A DNA stretch of 64,000 bases from positions 24,897 to 88,896 of the IMG/VR virus record IMGVR_UViG_3300044641_002513; one strand, given 5' to 3'. This DNA comes from a virus. The position numbers and the translations under genes are program-made. Below the pieces are notes generated by a model. That model worked only from the letters and a program-made list of their open reading frames with translations, did no database searches and was not told where the DNA came from. Positions 1 through 10,290 of this stretch are shown one piece after another (the stretch's first letter is position 1; each line of letters opens with the position of its first letter).

Positions 1-81
1 AATCTTTTTAAATAACTTGACATAACTAAGTTTTTGTGTTAATAAATGAGTAAATTATAGCTTAATGAAGTAAACCCTAAA

Positions 82-360
82 TTAATTAGGGTTTTCTTCT
101 ACTAAGCCGTAATATGTTTCTTCTGTCCATTCTCCTGGGTTCAGGCATATACAAAAGAACACTGTATTGAATAGTTCAAATGACCAAACGCTATCATTAA
201 TAACATTAGTCTTTTGATTAATAACCTTTTTATCCATAAGATGAAAAGCCTCAAGATAATCTTGATAATATCTTTCACTAATTGCAGTGTGATTAGGAAA
301 GAATTTAGTAGCTAAACTAATAGCTGAAGTGGTTTGTTTTAAAGGTTTGATAGTTAACAT
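82..360 (-). CDS. small hypothetical early protein
   Basis: 92-aa ORF preceded by TTTAAAACACAACAAT, an A-rich initiation motif shared with neighbouring ORFs. Confidence 0.7.
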   Translation of the reverse strand: MLTIKPLKQTTSAISLATKFFPNHTAISERYYQDYLEAFHLMDKKVINQKTNVINDSVWSFELFNTVFFCICLNPGEWTEETYYGLVEENPN

Positions 361-380
361 ATTGTTGTGTTTTAAAAGAT

Positions 381-467
381 TTAACTTAATTTAATTATTG
401 CAATTACTATACTAATGATAAATACTGTGTAGAAATAGAATAATCCTACTGATGCTTGTCTTTTCAT
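381..467 (-). CDS. 28-aa single-TM microprotein (not in ORF track)
   Basis: Translates as MKRQASVGLFYFYTVFIISIVIAIIKLS*; preceded by TTTTAAAACAAATAAT like the flanking genes and fills the gap between them. Confidence 0.55.
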   Translation of the reverse strand: MKRQASVGLFYFYTVFIISIVIAIIKLS

Positions 468-508
468 ATTATTTGTTTTAAAAATTACTGATTTGGTTAA
501 GAGTGGTA

Positions 509-742
509 CTATAAACCGTACCACTCGTCTAAACTATTGTCTTTTTCATATTCTTTGGCTACCATTTCAAAGAAATTATCTATGAAACCACAACCTTTAT
601 TAACTATTGGTGCTTTGTTAGTAGCAATCAATGTTTCATAATAGTTGATAATGTCTCTTACACTATATCTTGGAAGAATGTCACCGTCTAATAGATTAGT
701 AAATTTGTCTCTTGTTTTCTTTAATGCTTCTTCTTTTGTCAT
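509..742 (-). CDS. small hypothetical early protein
   Basis: 77-aa ORF with TTTAAAACATAAACA before the ATG. Confidence 0.7.
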   Translation of the reverse strand: MTKEEALKKTRDKFTNLLDGDILPRYSVRDIINYYETLIATNKAPIVNKGCGFIDNFFEMVAKEYEKDNSLDEWYGL

Positions 743-777
743 TGTTTATGTTTTAAAGGTTAATAACTAAAATAAAT

Positions 778-891
778 AATACACCACAGTTGTAATAGAA
801 GCATTCCCTGCTTGATTACTTCTACAAGACCTTACGTATACACAGCAGTCCGAAGGTATTACAACTGTCTAACCTAAGTTAGTGGTGTATT
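778..891 (-). ncRNA. candidate structured RNA with nested stems and complementary loops
   Basis: Inverted repeats 778-787/882-891 and 786-797/857-868; two internal hairpins with complementary loops (CUGCU/AGCAG); a G-U pair favours the minus strand. Confidence 0.55.
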
Positions 892-899
892 AATTCTGA

Positions 900-1202
900 T
901 TATTTTAATACTGGCAATTCTTCATAGTGATAACTACTGCTAGTAGTATCTCTCATAGCATGTAAATAGTTACAATAGTCTAATTCAGGATCAGAACTTA
1001 CATAACCATTATCAATACAATGTGATGTATAGTCTTCATAATTAAGAATTTCTTCTTCTATAGTAGACTCTACTATATCAGCAATTTTTTGTTTAGCAAG
1101 TTCTTCAGTGCTATAAACACCAACTATACTAGTTTCAGATTGACAATAATCATCATCTGTATCACGTATAAATGTCCAAAAAACAATGTATACTTTCTTC
1201 AT
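900..1202 (-). CDS. acidic hypothetical phage protein (VYIV...GVYSTEELAK type)
   Basis: 100-aa ORF with an N-terminal beta-strand and GVYSTxExA motif common in small phage early proteins. Confidence 0.75.
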   Translation of the reverse strand: MKKVYIVFWTFIRDTDDDYCQSETSIVGVYSTEELAKQKIADIVESTIEEEILNYEDYTSHCIDNGYVSSDPELDYCNYLHAMRDTTSSSYHYEELPVLK

Positions 1203-1226
1203 AAGTTTAGGTTTAAGTTTATAAAA

Positions 1227-1254
1227 TAAGCAGTTTATAGTCCTGCTTAGGACT
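1227..1254 (-). ncRNA. compact H-type pseudoknot in an intergenic spacer
   Basis: Minus strand AGUCC-UAAGCA-GGACU-AUAAA-CUGCUUA: stem AGUCC/GGACU, and the loop pairs with the downstream UGCUUA. Confidence 0.55.
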
Positions 1255-1259
1255 TTATC

Positions 1260-1460
1260 TTATTCTGGATTCATAAACACTTCATAAGTAGTTTCTGATA
1301 ATCTATCTACTCTATATGGTTTTTTACCATTAAGAATATTATCAGCCCACCACTTATTTTGTTCTCTTATTGACTGTCTTAGTCCAGATTCTCTAAATGA
1401 ATCCATTGATACTTTTAATAAAGCATCTTGTTGTTCTTGAGTTATTGTTATTACTTGCAT
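1260..1460 (-). CDS. small hypothetical early protein (start revised from 1547 to 1460)
   Basis: MQVITIT... start has an AT-rich leader; the longer 1547 start would overlap the ribozyme. Confidence 0.6.
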   Translation of the reverse strand: MQVITITQEQQDALLKVSMDSFRESGLRQSIREQNKWWADNILNGKKPYRVDRLSETTYEVFMNPE

Positions 1461-1502
1461 AATAAATATATTTTTAAGTGAATAAATAAAGTTTCTATAA
1501 GT

Positions 1503-1666
1503 TAATAATCCCTCTGCACTCAACTTGTAGTCAGTAGCTTTTGACATTCAGGATTTTAAATCCATCAGTACTACCTTTGCTGTTTTAAACCAAAGAATAA
1601 AACCATCCTGGCCAGATATACTACAAGTTGTCTACCCTTGGGAAGTGAGAATGGTGCATTACAAAA
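1503..1666 (-). ncRNA. twister-type self-cleaving ribozyme with a large P5 insertion
   Basis: Minus strand UAA-UGCA-CC-AU-UCUCAC-U-UCCC-AA-GG-GUAGA-[CAACUUGUAG...CUACAAGUUG]-AG-UGCA-GA-GGGA. This matches the twister core: UAA cleavage site, P2 UGCA/UGCA, T1 UCCC/GGGA, T2 CC/GG, P4 and P5. P1 is not evident. Confidence 0.75.
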
Positions 1667-1795
1667 GACTAAAAGTTGTAGAGAGAATGCATCAATATCT
1701 CTACCTTTCCAAATTTTTAAATGCATTTCTTCTAACAACCTCACATGTATCCCTACATGTTACAAAGAAAGCTTTTAGTCTTGGTGGATGGTTTT
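1665..1795 (-). ncRNA. multi-stem RNA domain directly upstream of the ribozyme
   Basis: Stems 1665-1675/1772-1782, 1678-1684/1698-1704 and 1743-1749/1754-1760; possible pseudoknot 1686-1692/1721-1727. Confidence 0.5.
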
Positions 1796-1799
1796 TTGT

Positions 1800-1890
1800 A
1801 CTCTCACAAGGTTGCAATCCTTGAAGTATGTGACACATTTGGAATGTACCTAATCGAAAAGGTATTCACATTACCTGCTTGGATGAGAGT
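1800..1890 (-). ncRNA. three-way-junction RNA candidate
   Basis: ACUCUCA/UGAGAGU closing stem, AUGUGA/UCACAU arm, and CAAGG-AUUGCAA-CCUUG hairpin. Confidence 0.55.
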
Positions 1891-1968
1891 AATTAATTAA
1901 GCCATAATATTATTAATATATATGGCTTGAGTATATAAGCAAAGAACCCTAAACGCAAAGCGGTGGTC

Positions 1969-2235
1969 TTAGACCACTGCTTTGAAGAACCCTAACTCGT
2001 TGGGTTTCACGAACTTAACTACACTTAAGTCAACTTTTGCAAGAGCTAACTGTGCTTGTTCGACTGTGATTCCTTGGTTAAGTATCATTGAGCCAAACTC
2101 GGTGATAGTCTTAATGCCTGCGAAGTCAGCAGTACGCTTGAAACATACCATAGTTCTGGTTTCTTTGTCTCCAGTTGGTGCATTGTCAACCCAAACTGGA
2201 ACTGTAATTTCGATAATTTTGTGAATTGTCATCAT
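1969..2235 (-). CDS. first gene of the minus-strand (early) block, hypothetical
   Basis: 88-aa ORF with TTTAAAACACAAAGCT before the ATG. Confidence 0.7.
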   Translation of the reverse strand: MMTIHKIIEITVPVWVDNAPTGDKETRTMVCFKRTADFAGIKTITEFGSMILNQGITVEQAQLALAKVDLSVVKFVKPNELGFFKAVV

Positions 2236-2301
2236 AGCTTTGTGTTTTAAAGTACGGGGTTCATTCCCCGTCCAAAAATAAGCGGGGGTCGTTGACAGTG
2301 C

Positions 2302-2460
2302 TAGTAACCACTTCTGTACGTTCTACAATAAAAAAATAATATAGTAACCACCTCTATACACTCTTAAATATTTTATATAAAAACAGTAACCACTTCTGTA
2401 TTGTCTGGGGGTATAAAAAATATACTAACCACCTCTGCATACTCAAGGGGTATAAAAAAA
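2302..2460. repeat. four imperfect direct repeats, about 40-bp period, core TAACCAC(T/C)TCT
   Basis: Units start at 2302, 2342, 2384 and 2423; GGGGTATAAAAAA follows the last two. Confidence 0.85.
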
Positions 2461-2510
2461 TAAAAAATAAAAAAAAAATAAATATACTGTATTACTAAAT
2501 TTATTTTATC

Positions 2511-2518
2511 TAATTTTG
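2511..2518 (+). promoter_or_regulatory. Bacteroidota-type -7 promoter element
   Basis: TAATTTTG matches TAnnTTTG and lies upstream of a structured non-coding stretch. Confidence 0.4.
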
Positions 2519-2646
2519 GCCTTGTATCCATACTCTATAACACTTAAATTATACAGTATGACCACCCTCAAGTTTTTACGTAGGGGTTAGAAGTTGGATT
2601 ATACTTAGTAACGATTAACATTACATATACTAAGTGGTTTTCTCCG

Positions 2647-2831
2647 ATAGATACAAAAAAGGTTTTTATATAAGTAGATACACAGGATAACACATAGCGA
2701 TTAGTGAGCTGGTGAATTAACACAAAAGGGTTATCCTCTGGTTTTATGGGTTTGCACTTGTATCTATGAAGTTAAAAATTAAAGACTCTAAGTCGGCCCA
2801 AGGTAGGGAAACCCTTATGCCTAATTTTTAA
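2647..2831 (+). ncRNA. candidate structured ncRNA or leader
   Basis: Inverted repeats 2647-2656/2758-2767, 2684-2691/2730-2737 and 2772-2781/2822-2831, plus small hairpins 2784-2794 and 2805-2815; no ORF in the track here. Confidence 0.45.
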
Positions 2832-2983
2832 TACACTCCTACACACTACAAAACAAGTCTTTAAATGTTGTTTGTTTATACGTATTATATAATACATACA
2901 AATAACGTACTCCCAAAACTATGCCTCACCAACACTACTATTGATACGCTTATTATAAATATTTTATAATAACTATTATTTTA

Positions 2984-3013
2984 TTGCTAGTTATTATAAT
3001 ATTATTATATTTG
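2984..3013 (+). promoter_or_regulatory. Bacteroidota housekeeping-sigma-type promoter, leaderless
   Basis: TTG (2984-2986), 19-nt spacer, TATATTTG (3006-3013), ATG at 3018. Confidence 0.7.
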
Positions 3014-3017
3014 CCTT

Positions 3018-3287
3018 ATGATTTTAGTTCATCTAGATACAAATGATAGTATATTACTACTATGTAATGACAAAAGCTTTCATGCTTTATACTACATTAT
3101 TAAACAGATGGACTTAGATACTAATATTTGGTATGCTGATAAGATTAATAAGACTACTATTGCTAATAAGTTAGAAATATCTCTAGCATCACTAGAGAAA
3201 ATGATAGCTTCGTTAAAGAGAAATAATCTTATTAGACCTACATCAAGAGGTGTTTATCAGCTTACAGAATTATTAAGAGACTACTGA
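3018..3287 (+). CDS. winged HTH DNA-binding protein (RepL-like)
   Basis: IANKLEISLASLEKMIASLKRNNLIRPTSRGVYQL follows the wHTH pattern. Confidence 0.7.
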   Translation: MILVHLDTNDSILLLCNDKSFHALYYIIKQMDLDTNIWYADKINKTTIANKLEISLASLEKMIASLKRNNLIRPTSRGVYQLTELLRDY

Positions 3288-3478
3288 TGGTTATTGGAGA
3301 AATTAAATCAGTTCCACTAGAACAACTTCTAATTAAGGAACAAACGCTAAAACAAAAGTTTGGGTTTTATTGTAGACAGCGCAATAAGACCCTTACTTTT
3401 AGCTACTCAGTAGCAACACACGGAGAATTATTATTTACTATTAAAGTTAAATTAAATGACAACAACAGAAAGAGTTAA
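3287..3478 (+). CDS. hypothetical protein
   Basis: 63-aa ORF translationally coupled (TGATG) to the upstream gene. Confidence 0.55.
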   Translation: MVIGEIKSVPLEQLLIKEQTLKQKFGFYCRQRNKTLTFSYSVATHGELLFTIKVKLNDNNRKS

Positions 3479-3863
3479 CTTATTAAAAGAAGTATTAGCA
3501 ACTTCATTTATGTTAGCAACAGAAAAATCAACAGCAAGTGGTATTAGCTTTGCATATAAGTCTGAGTCTATAGAAGTACCTGCTACTAAAGACACACCTG
3601 AGTTTAAAGCATGGCACTTTGATATTATAGTTAAAGAGTTAGGTTATGGAGAACATACTATACAACAGTTTAGATTCCCTCGTCCTAATAATATAGATGC
3701 TAAAAATATGGAGTACCACGTATTAGTAGAAGTTATTGCTTCTCTAACACAGACTTCTTTACTTACTTATTACGAAGTAGGTAAGTTACTTAATACAGAC
3801 AAAGAACTTCAAAAAGAAATTATCCATGAAGCAACAGAAAGTAATTTCACTTCCAACAAATGA
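3456..3863 (+). CDS. hypothetical protein
   Basis: 135-aa ORF in a tightly packed operon. Confidence 0.75.
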   Translation: MTTTERVNLLKEVLATSFMLATEKSTASGISFAYKSESIEVPATKDTPEFKAWHFDIIVKELGYGEHTIQQFRFPRPNNIDAKNMEYHVLVEVIASLTQTSLLTYYEVGKLLNTDKELQKEIIHEATESNFTSNK

Positions 3864-4398
3864 ATCTAAAATCTATAAACAAATTTTAGCATTTATGAAT
3901 TTTCTACTAGACCTTACTCCTCAAGAGAGAGGTGTACTAGCAGAAATCATAAGATTAGATAATGAGTATAGTATGTTGCCTAAAGACAAACGTGCTAAAT
4001 TTATCCTATCGACTGAGATTCGTAAAGAGATTAGAGACAATGTTGATTTAAAAGAAAAGCAGTTTAATGTAGTACTGTCAAGACTAAAGACTAAGACTTT
4101 TTTTGGTAAGCTTATACTTGATGATAACAACTATATACATCCAGATTTATCTTTTAAACCTGATAGTGATGGATTCAAGTTTGAAGTTAACTTTGTAATG
4201 ACTGCTGCTAAACCTAAAACTTTTACAGAGACACTAGGCCAAGAAATAGTTAACACACAAGCCCAAGCAGTAGAAGAATTTGTAATGTCTGGAACACCTG
4301 CTGAACCACCTGCTGAATATAAACACGATGCTTCTAAAGCACTTGTTATAGAAGAAGAAGATTTTGGTATAGAAATATTACCTACTACTAATGATTAA
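3826..4398 (+). CDS. putative HTH-containing protein with acidic tail
   Basis: LTPQERGVLAEI...IRDNVDLKEKQFNVVLSRLKTK resembles a wHTH. Confidence 0.6.
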   Translation: MKQQKVISLPTNESKIYKQILAFMNFLLDLTPQERGVLAEIIRLDNEYSMLPKDKRAKFILSTEIRKEIRDNVDLKEKQFNVVLSRLKTKTFFGKLILDDNNYIHPDLSFKPDSDGFKFEVNFVMTAAKPKTFTETLGQEIVNTQAQAVEEFVMSGTPAEPPAEYKHDASKALVIEEEDFGIEILPTTND

Positions 4399-4648
4399 CC
4401 AACAGCAAGATAATATACTTAAAGAAACAGCTAAAGACTTTGGTATAACCCAAGGTCAAGCTGAAGAAATATTTAGATTATTTTGCAACAGAGTATCAGA
4501 AGAAATAAGTTCTGATCATAAGACTGATGGATTATTTGACACTGCTAAGTTTAAAGTTATCCATATAGACAACTTTGGAAAGTTTATTCCCAATCAACGT
4601 AAAATAAGACATGCTAACTTTTGCTTAACTAAAAAATTAAAACCTTAA
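4391..4648 (+). CDS. HU/IHF-like DNA-binding protein
   Basis: ILKETAKDFGITQGQAEEIF...IHIDNFGKF is the HU/IHF signature. Confidence 0.75.
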   Translation: MINQQQDNILKETAKDFGITQGQAEEIFRLFCNRVSEEISSDHKTDGLFDTAKFKVIHIDNFGKFIPNQRKIRHANFCLTKKLKP

Positions 4649-4650
4649 CA

Positions 4651-4863
4651 ATGAATATTACACTTCCTATTTTCTCTACCAATACTACTATTGACACTAA
4701 GACAAAAGTAAATTGGGACCAAGAAGCTACTCACACAGTTACCTTCTATTCTATAGATGCTATATCTCCTTTTAAGGATACTAGCCACTCTATTATCTAC
4801 TCAGGCGGTAAAGAGTTTATATGTAAATACTCTTACGAAACACTATGGGACAAATTAAAATAA
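4651..4863 (+). CDS. hypothetical protein
   Basis: 70-aa ORF in the operon. Confidence 0.65.
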   Translation: MNITLPIFSTNTTIDTKTKVNWDQEATHTVTFYSIDAISPFKDTSHSIIYSGGKEFICKYSYETLWDKLK

Positions 4864-4864
4864 G

Positions 4865-5386
4865 ATGAAACCTCAACACGAGTTTAGTTTCTGGGATTTA
4901 AACAGAGAGTTGTTGCTTATAGAGCAATTTAACTCTTTGTACACAAAAGATACTACTAAGAATAAAGAAAAAAGTTCTAAGCTGATGTGGGCAATTTACT
5001 TTGCTTACAATCCTGAATCTAAGTTCTTTAACATTCCTGATAAACTTAGTATACTAGCTAAAGACTTGTTAAAAGAACCTAAGTTTAATTGGGAATCTTG
5101 TAAAGATGTAGTAGCTTTATACAAAAGTTCTGTATTAACTGATGCTGAACGAGCGTTAGTTACTTGGGGAGAAATTATAACAATGAGAGACGAGTCACTT
5201 AAAACTTTATACAAAGCTGCTATTCAACAAAATGATACAGATGAGTTAGTTAAGTTAGACAAAATGCTAGCTAATACTCCTAAACTATTTGAAGACTACA
5301 AAAAGATTAAGAAAGATTACGAAGAAGAAAAAGTTACTAAAAAAGGTAAACACAATAAGTCTCTAACTGAGGCTGGAGAAATTTAA
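4865..5386 (+). CDS. helical protein, possible terminase small subunit
   Basis: 173 aa, helical, two genes upstream of TerL; the function is a positional inference only. Confidence 0.45.
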   Translation: MKPQHEFSFWDLNRELLLIEQFNSLYTKDTTKNKEKSSKLMWAIYFAYNPESKFFNIPDKLSILAKDLLKEPKFNWESCKDVVALYKSSVLTDAERALVTWGEIITMRDESLKTLYKAAIQQNDTDELVKLDKMLANTPKLFEDYKKIKKDYEEEKVTKKGKHNKSLTEAGEI

Positions 5387-5397
5387 TACTTAAGACA

Positions 5398-5658
5398 ATG
5401 GATAGCATTTGGGAAAATAAATCAAAAATTCTAGAAGGTATTAAAAATACCGTAGCTAAAAATAAATTTGTAAAAGAAGTAGCTAAGGAAAGACATCTAA
5501 TATGTCAAGGTTGTATACACTTGTCTACAGATTGTCCTCCTTTAGTTAAAGAATGTTGTGCTGAATGTGGTTGTTCTGTAAAATTTAAGACCCACAGCCT
5601 AGCTTCAAGTTGTCCTATTAATAAATGGCCTGCAATAGAAACAAATGATAATAAATAA
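5398..5658 (+). CDS. Cys-rich zinc-binding protein
   Basis: CxxC...C...CCxxCGC...K...CP..KW pattern. Confidence 0.7.
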   Translation: MDSIWENKSKILEGIKNTVAKNKFVKEVAKERHLICQGCIHLSTDCPPLVKECCAECGCSVKFKTHSLASSCPINKWPAIETNDNK

Positions 5659-7819
5659 CTCCAATTTCAGATTACCCGAGATACCTAACTTCCATCCAAT
5701 ACTAGAGTATTACGATAGAATTGGTTTTTGGAAAGACCAAAAAAGAAGATGTATAGAAGGATATTGGGTATCAGGTAAATGGATGCCTGGTCCTTTATAT
5801 TACTATATCAACTTTCACAACATACAATTTGAAGACGACTCTTCTGTATCTCAAGCTTTTGGTTTACCGTTTTTAAGAGATATAGATTGGGAATTGTTTC
5901 TACTATACGAAGAATGTAGAGGTTTTTCAGGTTTTGCTGACGACACACAGTTTACTTGTGATAGAAAATATGGACCTGAAAAAGAACTTTCTATAAAACT
6001 AAAAAGGATTACTGAAGAAGAAACTAAAAAGTTTACTTATATAACTGCTAGAGAATATCTACGTAAAAATCACGGCAAATCTTTAGGAAAACCACTATAC
6101 AAAAACTCTGCTAAGCATTTTATGTCTATACAAGCCCGTGGTTCAGGTAAATCCTACTCCTCTTCAGGCATTGTTAATCATAACTTACTATTTGACGGAG
6201 CTACAGACTACGATGACTACCTTACTAGAAGAAAAGCTAAACAATTCTTTGCATCAGACACAGTTGTAGGAGCAATTGACACTAAGTACACAGTGCCTTT
6301 ACTTAAAAAATCCTCTACTGCACTAGAACTTTTAGCAGGAAGTTATAAATTAGGAGATGAGTTTTTTCCTGCACCACTAATGATTGATTATTCAGGGTCA
6401 ATGGCTCCCAATAGAGACATTACAAGTATGTCTGGTTCAGTACTTAGACATAGAACCTTTAAAGATAACCCACTAGCAGCCAATGGTACTAGACCTAACT
6501 TAGTAGTGCTGGATGAGGTAGGTTTTATGTATAACATTAAAGAGTCTTGGGGAGCAGTAGAAGCAACACAAGCATCTAAACAAAAGAAAAACCTAGTAAT
6601 CTGGGCATTAGGTACAGGAGGACTAGTATCAGGTAAAGCAGCATTGTATGCTGAATCTATATTTCGTAATCCGCAAGATTATAACTGTATAGACTTTGAA
6701 GATGTATGGGAACATAGAGGACAAATAGGTTATTTTGTACCTTATTCTAAAACTCTTAATGAGTTTAAGACTGGTGAAAACAAAATAACTGATGACTTGC
6801 TAGCTAATATGTATATTGAAAACAGACGTAAAGAAGCAAAGAAGTCACCTGATCCAACTGTATACCAAACAGAAATTATCAACGGTCCTATGTTGCCTTC
6901 AGAAGCTTTCCTTGTATTAGAAGGAGCTTTCTTTCCAACACTACTAATTAAAGAACAACTAGCTGAAGTTGAAGGAGGTAAATACAAAAAATACACAGAT
7001 GCTTCTTTTAAAGGTAGACTAGTCTTTACACAAGACGGAGCAGTAGACTTTGAAACAATACAAGATGAGAAACCTATTAGAAAGTTCCCTTTAAACAAGA
7101 ATGATGACAAACGAGGGTGTGTAGAACTATGGGCTAAACCACAAAGAAATCCCGACGGTACTATCAACCGAGGAGTGTACATTGCAGGAATAGACGTTGT
7201 TGATAAAGACAAGGCTACTACTGACTCACTACCTTGTATAGTAGTAATGAATAGATTCACTAGACAAATAGTAGCAGAATACACAGGACGTACAGGTGAA
7301 GCTAAAGATTTTTATGAAATCTGCCGTAAGTTGCTAATGTACTACAATGCTATGGGAATGTATGAAAAAAACCTTATTGGTTTATACAACTACTTTGACC
7401 AAAACAAATGTACTTATCTCCTAGCAGAAACTCCTTACCAATTACGCTCAACTGATACTTATAAAGCAGGTACTAATACTTCTAAAGGTATTAATGCATC
7501 AGGTTCTATTAACTCTGAAGGACGTAATATGGTTAAGTCTTGGTTACAAGAAAGAATATCAACAGTATCAGAGACAAGAGTGTATGAAACTATTTATTCT
7601 CCAGCAATGCTAACAGAGTTAGTGATGTGGAATCCTGATGGTAACTTTGATAGAGTATCAGCACTAATAATGTTAATGTGGTTAGACAGTACTATGTATA
7701 AAGAAGTAACACAAAAAGTCGAACAGATAAAAACATTCTTAGATAATCCTTATTTTGAAAAAATGGGAGTACTAAAAAAGAAGCCAATAGAGACTTTTAA
7801 TTCAAATTATTATTCATAG
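5645..7819 (+). CDS. terL: terminase large subunit
   Basis: Walker A ARGSGKS, Walker B VVLDE, nuclease motifs YIAGID and NFDRVSA; crAss-type N-terminus (YYYINF). Confidence 0.95.
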   Translation: MIINNSNFRLPEIPNFHPILEYYDRIGFWKDQKRRCIEGYWVSGKWMPGPLYYYINFHNIQFEDDSSVSQAFGLPFLRDIDWELFLLYEECRGFSGFADDTQFTCDRKYGPEKELSIKLKRITEEETKKFTYITAREYLRKNHGKSLGKPLYKNSAKHFMSIQARGSGKSYSSSGIVNHNLLFDGATDYDDYLTRRKAKQFFASDTVVGAIDTKYTVPLLKKSSTALELLAGSYKLGDEFFPAPLMIDYSGSMAPNRDITSMSGSVLRHRTFKDNPLAANGTRPNLVVLDEVGFMYNIKESWGAVEATQASKQKKNLVIWALGTGGLVSGKAALYAESIFRNPQDYNCIDFEDVWEHRGQIGYFVPYSKTLNEFKTGENKITDDLLANMYIENRRKEAKKSPDPTVYQTEIINGPMLPSEAFLVLEGAFFPTLLIKEQLAEVEGGKYKKYTDASFKGRLVFTQDGAVDFETIQDEKPIRKFPLNKNDDKRGCVELWAKPQRNPDGTINRGVYIAGIDVVDKDKATTDSLPCIVVMNRFTRQIVAEYTGRTGEAKDFYEICRKLLMYYNAMGMYEKNLIGLYNYFDQNKCTYLLAETPYQLRSTDTYKAGTNTSKGINASGSINSEGRNMVKSWLQERISTVSETRVYETIYSPAMLTELVMWNPDGNFDRVSALIMLMWLDSTMYKEVTQKVEQIKTFLDNPYFEKMGVLKKKPIETFNSNYYS

Positions 7820-7824
7820 ATTTG
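7817..7824 (+). promoter_or_regulatory. TAnnTTTG promoter element upstream of portal
   Basis: TAGATTTG ends 21 nt before the portal ATG. Confidence 0.45.
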
Positions 7825-7845
7825 TATTTTAAATAAAATTTTACT

Positions 7846-10290
7846 ATGAGCTCTCCTGTAAAAATCCAAGGTTATATCAGTTTTCCAAGACAAAAGTTAT
7901 CTGATGCAGAAAAAACAGACCACTGGTATAAAAAGAATATAGACTTTGCAGAGCATCTATTAACATCGGACGTTAATCTACGTTCTAACTTTAAAAATAA
8001 AAAAAGCAACTACAACTTAAGAGTTAACATCATCAGCTCTAAAGACTTTGAGAAGTTTATCAACCCTGATAACTTAGATTTAGAATCTTTACCTGCTTCT
8101 TTCCAACACATAGGAATAGAAAACAGTAAAATTAACTTGTTGTTAGGAGAATATGCTAAAAGAAAGAAAGACTTTAAAGCATACATATCATCTAACGATT
8201 CAGAAAGTATATCTCGTAAAGAACAAACTTTAACTGACACTATAAAAGCAGAACTAGATAACATCATACAGACTACTTCTATTAGTGATGAAGAAATACA
8301 AAAAAGATTACAACAACTAGAAAAATATAAAACTTACCAATTCCAAGATATTGCAGAGATTACTGCTAACAAAATTCTAAAGAAAGAATACAAAGAAGGA
8401 GATTTTGATTTTACTTTCTTAAGAACTTTTGAAGACTTGCTTACAGCAGGAGAAGAAATAATGTATTGTGGAGTATTAGGAGGCAACCCTGTAATGAGAC
8501 GAGTTAATCCTATGAACTTATACACAATGGGCGGTAACTCAATGTATATCGAAGATGCCGACATTATTGTAGAATATGGTTATAGGTCAATAGGACAAAT
8601 AATAGATGATTACTGGGACGTACTACGACCTGAAGACATTGACTTCTTAGAAAGAGGAAAAGTAGATGCATCATTAGGTTCAGGTGGTGGTATAGGATTA
8701 AACAGAGATATTTCTGTATACGATTACTACGGAGAACAAGGTGCTCTTAATATCTTTCATCCTAACGAAATGGGAGTACGTACATTTGCAGGTGCTTTTG
8801 ATACTTACGGTAACGTACGTGTGCTAAAAGTATGTTGGAGGTCTAGAAGAAAAATAGGTGAGCTTACTTACTTTGATGAAGACGGTAACGAACAAAAAGA
8901 CTATGTTCCTGAAGACTATAAAGTTAACAAAACATTAGGAGAATCTTTAAAATGGATATGGGTTAATGAGTGGATGGAAGGTACTAAGATAGCTGACCAT
9001 GTATATACAGTAATGAGGCCTGTACCTTATGCTTCTAAATCCCTAGTTAACAAATCAAAAGGTACTCCACCTTATGTAGGTAGCGTAAACTCAACAAATG
9101 ATTACAAGGTTCAATCCTTAATGGATGTGATGAAACCGTTAGCTTATTCTTATGACATTGCTTATTACAAACGTGAATTAGCTATTGCTACCTACAAAGG
9201 TTCTTTTACAGCACTTAACAGTTCTTTAGTGCCATCAGGTTGGGACCCTAAAGAATGGATGAGATATGTAACTATCAATAAATTTGGTTGGTTAGACCCT
9301 ACTAATGAAATACTTAAAGGACCTTCTCAAGGTAAGTCAGCAGGAGCTTTCAATACACTTACAGCTCAACAAATACAAGTAGGTGACCCTAATGAAATAG
9401 GAATGTATACTAACTTAATGTTAGATATAGAAAATACTCTAGGTAAAATAGCAGGTGTTACAGGTGCTAGAGAAGGGCAAATACAAAACAGAGAAGCCGT
9501 TAATAATGTAGAACGTGAGGTAGCACAAACTTCTCACATTACAGAAAAATGGTTTGCAATAGATAACAACTTCCGCAAAAGAGTATTAACTAAGTTCTTA
9601 GAGTGTTGTAAATATGCTTATAAAACTAATCCTAAAAAAGGACAATACTTATTAGATGATATGGGGCAACAACTTATAACTCACTTCGACGAGTTTTGTG
9701 CTACGGAGTATGATTTACACTTGTCTAATTCTTCTAATGACCAACAGTTGTTTAATGACCTTAAAGCATTATCTCAAGCAGCTATTCAAAACGGACAAGC
9801 TACTATATCAGATTTAATTGCTATTAGCCAATCTGAATCTGTACAAGATGTTGCAAGAAAATTAGAAGACTCTGCTAGAAAAATTAGAGAAGAAAATCAG
9901 AAAATACAACAACAACAATTAGCTCAACAAGACGAAGCTAATAAATTAATGATGCAAGACAAGCAAGCTCAACGAGAGTGGGAGATTAAAAAACACGACG
10001 ATGATATTGCAGTAGAAAGAGAAAGAATAGAATCTAATATACTTATTGCAAGTATAAAAGAAGAGAATAACAACTACAGAAACAGCACTAATATGGTAGA
10101 CACTGATAACAATGGTGTGGGAGATTTATTAGACTTACGTCGCACTGAAGTTGATGAGAATTTTAAACAAGAACAGATTAACTTAAAGCAACAACAGTTA
10201 GAAGAAACAGTTAGAGCTAATAAAGCTAAAGAGGAACTACAGAAAAAATCTATTGCTGCTCAAGCTAACAGAGCTAATGGAGCAAAATAG
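7846..10290 (+). CDS. portal protein
   Basis: 814 aa after TerL; FPRQKL start, WINEW-like WVNEW, GVTGAREGQI, C-terminal coiled coil with DTDNNG, all typical of crAss-like portals. Confidence 0.9.
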   Translation: MSSPVKIQGYISFPRQKLSDAEKTDHWYKKNIDFAEHLLTSDVNLRSNFKNKKSNYNLRVNIISSKDFEKFINPDNLDLESLPASFQHIGIENSKINLLLGEYAKRKKDFKAYISSNDSESISRKEQTLTDTIKAELDNIIQTTSISDEEIQKRLQQLEKYKTYQFQDIAEITANKILKKEYKEGDFDFTFLRTFEDLLTAGEEIMYCGVLGGNPVMRRVNPMNLYTMGGNSMYIEDADIIVEYGYRSIGQIIDDYWDVLRPEDIDFLERGKVDASLGSGGGIGLNRDISVYDYYGEQGALNIFHPNEMGVRTFAGAFDTYGNVRVLKVCWRSRRKIGELTYFDEDGNEQKDYVPEDYKVNKTLGESLKWIWVNEWMEGTKIADHVYTVMRPVPYASKSLVNKSKGTPPYVGSVNSTNDYKVQSLMDVMKPLAYSYDIAYYKRELAIATYKGSFTALNSSLVPSGWDPKEWMRYVTINKFGWLDPTNEILKGPSQGKSAGAFNTLTAQQIQVGDPNEIGMYTNLMLDIENTLGKIAGVTGAREGQIQNREAVNNVEREVAQTSHITEKWFAIDNNFRKRVLTKFLECCKYAYKTNPKKGQYLLDDMGQQLITHFDEFCATEYDLHLSNSSNDQQLFNDLKALSQAAIQNGQATISDLIAISQSESVQDVARKLEDSARKIREENQKIQQQQLAQQDEANKLMMQDKQAQREWEIKKHDDDIAVERERIESNILIASIKEENNNYRNSTNMVDTDNNGVGDLLDLRRTEVDENFKQEQINLKQQQLEETVRANKAKEELQKKSIAAQANRANGAK

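Follow-up and report, generated by a model that had tools for sequence, protein, structure and literature searches.

What do the gene-free spacers among the first genes of this phage encode, and does the RNA read from them cut itself? The stretch analyzed here, referred to as the window, comprises 64,000 nucleotides (nt) at the right end of an IMG/VR virus record of 88.9 kb (IMGVR_UViG_3300044641_002513). The source phage comes from lake water and is crAss-like, since an open reading frame (ORF) at 11554-13065 matches the Crassvirus major capsid protein family (Pfam PF23898, Crass_capsid; E = 1.7e-85). The initial annotation had proposed that the spacers among the first four minus-strand genes (approximately 508, 57, and 157 nt) are filled with folds rather than random DNA, that one of these folds is a twister core, and that together they constitute an RNA-level processing system independent of host ribonucleases (RNases). 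Our analysis located all six proposed folds in the spacers, five of which are backed by comparison with relatives in which the array is conserved, so the first of these proposals stands. The element at 1510-1661 on the minus strand is probably a twister-class self-cleaving ribozyme, although its cleavage is a prediction. The reading that we favor, and likewise consider probable from the sequences at hand, is a ribozyme-punctuated operon in which self-cleavage between cistrons would leave structured, protected ends. The ribozyme candidate, labeled G, and its parts are laid out as follows (P, helix; L, loop; PK, pseudoknot).

1510-1661, minus strand: twister-class ribozyme candidate (G), recognized by twister core features, covariation, and published twister rules
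U1661/A1660, minus strand: predicted cleavage at a U-A step, followed by A1659
1658-1655 with 1518-1515, minus strand: P2, UGCA with UGCA, 4 base pairs (bp)
1654-1653 with 1637-1636, minus strand: PK1, CC with GG, by complementarity
1650-1645 with 1635-1631, minus strand: P4, with one bulged or mismatched C in the window copy
1644-1636, minus strand: L4, UUCCCAAGG
1642-1640 with 1512-1510, minus strand: PK2, CCC with GGG, by complementarity
1514, minus strand: candidate general base G, within GAGGG
1521-1630, minus strand: P5 arm, a 10-bp base (CAACUUGUAG/CUACAAGUUG) around a 90-nt insert

Folding energy by itself is weak evidence, and the case for the folds rests on relatives. Expressed as z-scores, excess stability was found in the 157-nt spacer at 743-899 (z = -3.35) and in the 57-nt spacer at 1203-1259 (z = -2.6), but the 508-nt spacer reached only -1.4 on the minus (sense) strand, compared with -2.8 on the plus strand. 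Ten related loci were fetched with the third and first genes of the operon as anchors, and further loci, amounting to ~1.3 Mb, were fetched by element motifs; the phage GenBank collection, searched in near and distant modes, gave no match. In the related loci, the spacer elements come back with their ends conserved and their interiors exchanged, and they stand in different orders relative to the genes. Compensatory changes were found among these relatives in the twister stems, the tRNA-like element, module C, and the pseudoknot, the latter three of which are described below.

The relatives of the ribozyme candidate share a series of blocks, namely UAAUG(C/U)ACCA, a 5-bp hairpin looped by UUCCCAAGG, a long hairpin with the base CAGUUGUAAU/AUUACAACUG and a variable tip, and A-G-UGCA-GAGGG, in that order. 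Among the 57 complete copies that are distinct, hardly any variation touches UAA, CC, UUCCCAAGG, or GAGGG, while the stems covary. The predicted cleavage step has U in 56 copies and A in all 57, in keeping with the N-A rule for twisters. The third pair of P2 is C-G in 47 copies, U-A in seven, and U-G in three; P2 positions are paired throughout (100%), and sliding the 3' partners lowers pairing of the whole structure to 11-53%. P4 comprises 5 bp in 10 strand combinations and is paired in 98.9% of cases versus 72% after shuffling of partners, and the base of P5 is paired in 94% versus 81%. The P5 insert is the variable part of the family, and the whole arm measures 24-203 nt in relatives. L4 is the same in all of these copies and agrees in seven of eight letters with the twister L4 consensus UCCCAAGC. 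PK1 (CC:GG) fits the published "NC" rule, with both pairs invariant in 46 sequences and no covariation within the family. The letters of PK2 (CCC:GGG) are invariant as well, their pairing being one of complementarity only, and GAGGG is identical to the Rfam consensus; one relative copy that carries CUC in L4 also lacks GAGGG. A twister core had been placed at 1503-1666, and a twister-class element with these core motifs and covarying P2, P4, and P5 indeed spans 1510-1661.

Published rules for twisters offer a standard for this family. They give CCGGUCCCAAGCCCGG as the P4/L4 search consensus, "NC" for the two-pair pseudoknot, "GRG" as the 3' strand of the three-pair pseudoknot, and an N-A cleavage step (McKinley et al. 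2024, PMC11662667 and preprint), with A as general acid and G as general base (also reviewed in PMC5408937). A descriptor was built from these rules, comprising an N-A site, a 4-bp P2, "NC" for PK1, the P4/L4 consensus, and "GRG" for PK2. It returned 66 matches in the ~1.3 Mb of motif-fetched loci versus none in five shuffles. As a positive control, at least 114 phage contigs with the canonical P4/L4 16-mer were taken from IMG/VR, and the Rfam alignment of one canonical control twister served as the reference layout. Canonical phage twisters read G-UAAUGCAGCC-[P3]-CCGGUCCCAAGCCCGG-AAAA-UGCAGAGGG, whereas the variant family reads UAAUGCACCA...UGCAGAGGG in place of UAAUGCAGCC...UGCAGAGGG; the letters of L1 and P2 are therefore equal in both groups. 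The motif formed by L4 and the base of P5 is present in at least 120 IMG/VR contigs, and both core halves were found in 74 of its 91 occurrences in the newly fetched loci.

The element order is that of the type-P1 twister (RF03160, clan CL00120; Roth et al. 2014 via PMC5408937; PMC11662667). Shared features include U-A-A on the 5' side of L1, a 4-bp P2 that reads UGCA/UGCA as in many phage twisters, a P4 hairpin loop of UCCCAAG, the complementary CCC and GGG letters of a putative three-pair pseudoknot, GAGGG with the candidate general-base G, and an optional P5 arm. Unlike the canonical form, the putative two-pair pseudoknot is CC:GG rather than GC:GC, a single flipped pair that keeps complementarity; L4 has an extra U, P3 is missing, P1 is absent or only 2-4 bp, and the P5 arm of 24-203 nt is mostly a variable insert. 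This variant is not scored by the Rfam models. On these comparisons, the family of 1510-1661 would be a variant of the known twister class. Full-text literature searches turned up no publication that deals with twisters of crAss-like phages or that reports one next to a tRNA-like RNA in a phage.

Upstream of the ribozyme candidate in the transcript lies a second conserved element, whose parts resemble half of a transfer RNA (tRNA).

1799-1891, minus strand: tRNA-like three-way junction (B), whose closing stem and small arm both change compensatorily
1891-1884 with 1806-1799, minus strand: closing stem, U-ACUCUCA with UGAGAGU-A, 7-8 bp, acceptor-like
past the 5' strand of the closing stem, minus strand: single-stranded part, UCCAAGCAGG
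about 1871-1824, minus strand: middle arm, variable
1823-1807, minus strand: small arm, CAAGG-AUUGCAA-CCUUG, 5 bp with a 7-nt loop, abutting the closing stem

The three-way junction foreseen at 1800-1890 proved exact. Its 3' 22-mer is found unchanged in at least 119 viral contigs, and since the loci were fetched by this 22-mer, covariation is under-sampled. Nevertheless, second copies and variants carry compensatory closing stems (ACUCUUG/CAAGAGU, UCUCUCA/UGAGAGA, and GUUCUUG/CAAGAAC), the flanking pair is U:A in 87 copies and A:U in eight, and the small arm has the compensatory variant CAGGG/CCCUG. In the family, the small arm reads CAAGG-RUUGCAA-CCUUG and is followed directly by UGAGAGU-A-C. 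The single-stranded UCCAAGCAGG is replaced by UCCAAUUGCAGG in a third of relatives, and the middle arm ranges from 5 to 202 nt, with unrelated sequences that keep their hairpin potential.

With its 7(+1)-bp stem set directly against a 5-bp arm that bears a 7-nt loop, the element reproduces the acceptor/T half of a tRNA. It has no D arm, anticodon arm, or canonical T-loop (UUCRA), its loop being RUUGCAA; single-stranded UCCAA(G/UUG)CAGG takes the place of the D arm, and the variable arm takes that of the anticodon arm. ARAGORN found no tRNA gene in the window, and the Rfam tRNA model gave no match at E <= 10 over 400-3100. Among 185,579 bacterial and archaeal species genomes, the 22-mer occurs in three contigs of metagenome-assembled genomes (MAGs) only, two of them from Lake Mendota; the element is therefore not a mimic of a host gene found there. 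One of the Lake Mendota contigs (JBIPNK010000148.1) is a phage-sized contig of 117.9 kb that carries the 22-mer and was binned as Chitinophagaceae (a Bacteroidota MAG), which hints at the host lineage or at a binning artifact. Judging from its shape, the tRNA-like element is probably recognized by host RNase P, RNase Z, or both. Hammerhead, pistol, hatchet, and hepatitis delta virus (HDV) folds were considered for this element and rejected, as their core motifs are absent and no Rfam match was obtained. Mimicry of CRISPR repeats was likewise rejected, there being no resemblance past GUUG...CAAC-like letters.

The remaining folds of the spacers are as follows.

1662-1797, minus strand: module C, an optional module with a closing helix, a short hairpin, and a long imperfect helix
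1227-1254, minus strand: H-type pseudoknot, with stem 1 (S1) AGUCC/GGACU and stem 2 (S2) UAAGCA/UGCUUA, 5 nt past the stop of gene 2
777-892, minus strand: twister-derived closed hairpin (F), 11 bp (UAAUACACCAC/GUGGUGUAUUA), in the spacer with the lowest z-score
1899-1928, minus strand: AU-rich hairpin with an 8-bp stem (AAGCCAUA/UAUGGCUU)

Module C corresponds to a multi-stem domain proposed at 1665-1795 and is a conserved fold. It has four homologs with 90-93% identity, always between the tRNA-like element and the twister, and two of its pairs change compensatorily among the five sequences. Its closing helix is the structure that precedes the twister cut in the window. The pseudoknot was also placed exactly by the initial annotation: it follows the family design, in which the loop of stem 1 pairs with a downstream pentamer and the whole element stands just past a stop codon, and both stems show compensation, with S1 variants (GUCC, AUGC, and CCAUA) and S2 variants (AAGCA, GAGCA, and GAGUA) each accompanied by their complement. 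The design of this pseudoknot gave 23 family-type matches in the fetched loci versus two in shuffles. A generic pseudoknot scan of the genome was uninformative (89 matches versus ~66 in shuffles), and only the family-specific scan was useful. The hairpin at 1899-1928 is present as described, but its conservation extends to one close relative only and finds no wider comparative support.

The strongly folded element at 778-891 is real as well, but its interpretation as a kissing loop found no support, and it is instead a closed hairpin derived from a twister. Element F agrees with ribozyme candidate G in its 5' strand, the position of P4, and the base of P5. In F, only UUAG is left of L4, and the 3' strand is perfectly complementary to the 5' strand, so that neither the L1 loop nor GAGGG remains. 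Hybrid copies occur in two relatives (L062, minus strand, ~9440-9600; L135, ~4260-4400), in which an intact twister 5' half with L4 (UUCCCAAGG) is joined to a closed, fully complementary 3' strand without GAGGG; they resemble intermediates between a live twister and a dead hairpin. These hybrids, together with the copy lacking both CCC and GAGGG, show element F to be a product of the decay or domestication of twisters. Ribozymes thus decay to plain structural hairpins within the same operon.

The genomic arrangement of these elements bears on their joint function. Of the tRNA-like copies with at least 800 nt of downstream sequence, 63 of 121 have a twister within 800 nt downstream on the same strand. 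The distance between the two is 3-621 nt, and in five cases only 3-6 nt. For 83 twister copies, ARAGORN was run on the upstream 400 nt and detected no tRNA. The twister 3' end most often lies 20-60 nt before the start of an ORF, the distance being 49 nt in the window. Of 137 distinct twister copies, 11 have a gene-end pseudoknot directly upstream whose end is no more than 14 nt from the cut, compared with 18 of the 2740 random positions that served as control for this loosely defined test. In 72 copies, a hairpin of another kind ends no more than 12 nt from the cut, an uncontrolled count. Across the 137 copies, the twister typically lies just past a stable 3' fold and 20-60 nt before a start codon, which supports this part of the proposal. 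Such placement fits the cutting of a polycistronic RNA that leaves protected ends. In three relatives (L016 at 3261-3480, L053, and L037), a second, diverged tRNA-like element with an ACUCUUG/CAAGAGU stem and a CAGGG/CCCUG arm stands 2-3 nt past the twister 3' end, so alternating arrays of twisters and tRNA mimics exist.

From these features, we infer the following course of cleavage and processing for the ribozyme-punctuated operon. The leftward operon would be transcribed as a single RNA, in which 1510-1661 would fold as a type-P1 twister with a P5 arm and cut between U1661 and A1660. The upstream product would carry the gene 1 message, the tRNA-like element, and module C and would end in a 2',3'-cyclic phosphate 4 nt past a stable helix, the phosphate and the terminal helix together protecting this end. 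The downstream product, with gene 2 onward, would begin with a 5'-hydroxyl (5'-OH) group and the compact ribozyme fold, 49 nt before gene 2, and both could protect it. Host RNase P and RNase Z may cut out the tRNA-like RNA, module C, or both as a discrete small RNA. Furthermore, the pseudoknot past gene 2 probably shields the end of the gene 2 message, and the dead twister F past gene 3 probably only protects or insulates the neighboring message ends. The idea of an RNA-level processing system is upheld in part by the twister candidate and the conserved array of folds, but it is doubtful that such a system would work without host RNases, given that the tRNA-like element resembles an RNase P/Z substrate.

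Folded spacer RNAs that mark cuts into separately stable messages have well-known parallels. RNase III sites punctuate the early operon of T7, and tRNAs punctuate mitochondrial transcripts. Unlike those systems, one cut here would probably be made by the RNA itself, and the unit that resembles a tRNA is no functional tRNA but a mimic whose cargo can be exchanged. Engineered analogs include ribozyme insulators (RiboJ), tRNA-scaffold RNA expression, and twister-flanked "Tornado" RNAs. In RiboJ-type insulators, a message headed by a ribozyme has a standardized and protected 5' end, and in tRNA-scaffold expression, cargo that replaces the anticodon arm of the scaffold is stabilized; the layout proposed here would resemble both. 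In contrast to these synthetic constructs, it is natural and conserved in >100 phage contigs.

Theta ribozymes, minimal HDV-like ribozymes beside phage tRNA genes (Kienbeck et al. 2024, PMC10879173), provide a likeness in placement, as a small self-cleaving ribozyme, here a candidate, stands directly beside a tRNA-shaped RNA in phages. By analogy, this likeness suggests that the ribozyme defines an RNA end. The two systems differ in several respects: the class here is twister rather than HDV-like; the partner is not a real tRNA, having no D or anticodon arm and being rejected by ARAGORN; and the twister also stands alone before genes in most contigs. Another comparison is offered by the cultured crAss-like phage phi14:2, whose long early-gene intergenic regions yield abundant stable non-coding RNAs (bioRxiv 10.1101/2020.03.07.982082). 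Both phages have long gene-free spacers among their first genes, and in phi14:2 these are transcribed early into stable RNAs of unknown function. Positions 1-9000 of phi14:2 share no sequence motifs with the window, and homology is thus not shown. The abundant early non-coding RNAs reported for crAss-like phages may have comparable counterparts in the lineage of the window.

To our knowledge, the cellular role of twister ribozymes has been open since their discovery. The family described here is a candidate twister variant missed by the catalogs, occurring in >100 phage contigs in one kind of place, namely between cistrons, past a putatively end-protecting fold and ~45 nt before a start codon, and often behind a tRNA-shaped RNA with exchangeable cargo. 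It offers a testable function for twisters, that of punctuating operons with protected RNA ends and releasing small RNAs, and it indicates that real twisters are hidden by Rfam thresholds.

Several observations weigh against the ribozyme-punctuated operon. At the gathering threshold, Rfam matched nothing in the whole window, and the RAGATH motifs mentioned by the initial annotation did not appear there, nor did any other Rfam motif. Searches by E-value on 400-3100, on 1485-1685, and on a 126-nt relative and an 89-nt minimal relative gave chance rows resembling small nucleolar RNAs or microRNAs only. RF03160 did not match the phage's own record or four relatives, and RF02684 did not match the own record; the twister models thus have no match even at E <= 10 on stretches of 89-201 nt. 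As a control, eight loci that carry the canonical P4/L4 16-mer were scored; only one attained the Rfam cut-off of 67.2 bits, and the negative result at the gathering threshold therefore carries little weight. Both twister pseudoknots are invariant and so are supported by complementarity alone. Moreover, the window copy is not the best example of its family: no P1 helix can be drawn in it (two to four pairs can in some relatives), and its P4 combines a 5' strand of one type with a 3' strand of another, which leaves a bulged C or mismatch after the two contiguous pairs beside the loop, so that it fails the strict descriptor. The tRNA-like element lies upstream in one of 76 newly fetched twister loci, which lack the 22-mer by design, so the pairing of the two elements is not obligate. 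Additionally, the non-canonical T-loop and the rejection by ARAGORN count against recognition of the tRNA-like element by RNase P and RNase Z.

One reading that overlaps with the ribozyme-punctuated operon, and places the function elsewhere, holds that the main product is a small RNA and that message stability is secondary. This is possible, if clearly less probable. The tRNA-shaped scaffold, module C, or both would be the functional payload, acting as a decoy for tRNA-targeting defenses, a regulator, or a sponge, with the twister making the 3' end and RNase P/Z the 5' end. Such a role would suit the near-exact scaffold letters in at least 119 contigs, the hairpin potential kept in a middle arm of 5-202 nt, the five copies in which the scaffold ends 3-6 nt before the cut, the restriction of module C to the place between scaffold and twister, the absence of the scaffold from bacterial genomes save the three MAG contigs, and the abundant early RNAs of phi14:2. 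However, a short-word BLAST of the six spacer elements, the scaffold with its variable arm among them, against the phage genome gave chance-level matches only and no antisense target, and the scaffold is present in only the one newly fetched twister locus mentioned above. Carried further, the cassette may be a natural RNA-production device, a rather doubtful suggestion, in which the scaffold with its swappable cargo, or the module, would be excised with precise ends, one made by host tRNA enzymes and the other by the twister, and would serve early as a decoy or regulator against host defense or translation. Circularization by RtcB is conceivable here because of the 5'-OH and cyclic-phosphate ends. 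If true, twister ribozymes would thereby gain a definite role in biology.

We regard it as unlikely that the spacers hold ordinary host-RNase sites (RNase III, E, or Y, as in the T7 early operon) and that the twister-like element is a non-cleaving relic. Among the 57 copies, the unpaired core letters are kept more strictly than the stems, as is characteristic of a tertiary active core, and this would be hard to reconcile with a relic, even though the operon and its relatives contain clearly dead derivatives and element F gives a stacked helix of ~22 bp that could serve as such a site. The missing P1 and the defective P4 of the window copy fit a relic too, but P1 is reported to be dispensable for twister activity, and P1, P2, and P4 to tolerate imperfections, including bulges and mismatches in P4 (PMC11662667). 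The Rfam negative, which also agrees with a relic, weighs little at the gathering threshold given the one-in-eight rate of the canonical control. Finally, it is very improbable that these are DNA-level elements, that is, inverted-repeat cassettes (like miniature inverted-repeat transposable elements or the promoter-early stem-loops of T4) that shuffle small early genes with incidental RNA structure, since the conserved ends with swapped interiors, the differing order relative to small genes, and the recombinant look of the window P4 with its strands of two types are outweighed by pairing kept through compensatory changes, conserved strand-specific asymmetric motifs (UAA, GAGGG, and the loop letters), co-orientation with the genes, core letters that agree with a known ribozyme class, and the lack of target-site duplications and transposase genes.

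The genes between which these elements lie encode small proteins.

1969-2235, minus strand: gene 1, 88 amino acids (aa), without family match, first of the leftward arm
1260-1460, minus strand: gene 2, 66 aa, with its ATG at 1460, starting 49 nt past the twister 3' end
900-1202, minus strand: gene 3, 100 aa, with weak PHROG matches of unknown function; anchor for fetching relatives
509-742, minus strand: gene 4, 77 aa, starting 34 nt past element F (777-892)

Comparison with PHROG and Pfam gave no informative match for any of the four proteins. The leftward small-gene arm begins at 2235 and the large plus-strand genes begin at 3018, leaving a divergent gene-free region of 780 nt between them. 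Solely from its position beside this region, the operon would be early and read by the virion RNA polymerase. Gene 1 ends inside a terminator-like hairpin (GUGGUC-UAA-GACCAC, 1959-1978, minus strand) that has the stop codon in its loop and a U-rich stretch after it, and this hairpin might act as an attenuator of read-through into the RNA cassette. Within the divergent region, just upstream of the first leftward gene, a motif of ~16 nt (plus strand, GTAACCAC[T/C]TCT[G/A]TA) occurs four times at ~40-nt spacing (2297-2456); its copies could be promoters, operators, or an origin. Hairpin promoters of the N4 type were considered and dropped for want of support. The remainder of the region (2500-2900, minus strand) is gene-free with GC-richer patches, for example, around 2760-2830, and may hold further structured RNAs.

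Between the twister 3' end and the start codon of gene 2, an AU-rich leader (UUAACUUAUAGAAACUU...) occupies 1471-1509. It recurs in relatives, both past the twister (L011, L023, and L068) and before other small genes (L007 at 2401-2422 and L008 at 4088-4109), and may be a promoter or a translation leader. Two observations concern the control contigs. In one from an unrelated phage (L160), a canonical type-P1 twister and three hammerheads of type II all lie within 5 kb of sequence, with Rfam matches at 1961-3465 and 6804-6867. Another viral contig fetched as a twister control (L237) contains a CRISPR-DR2 repeat match at 8631-8660 that lies just over the Rfam cut-off.

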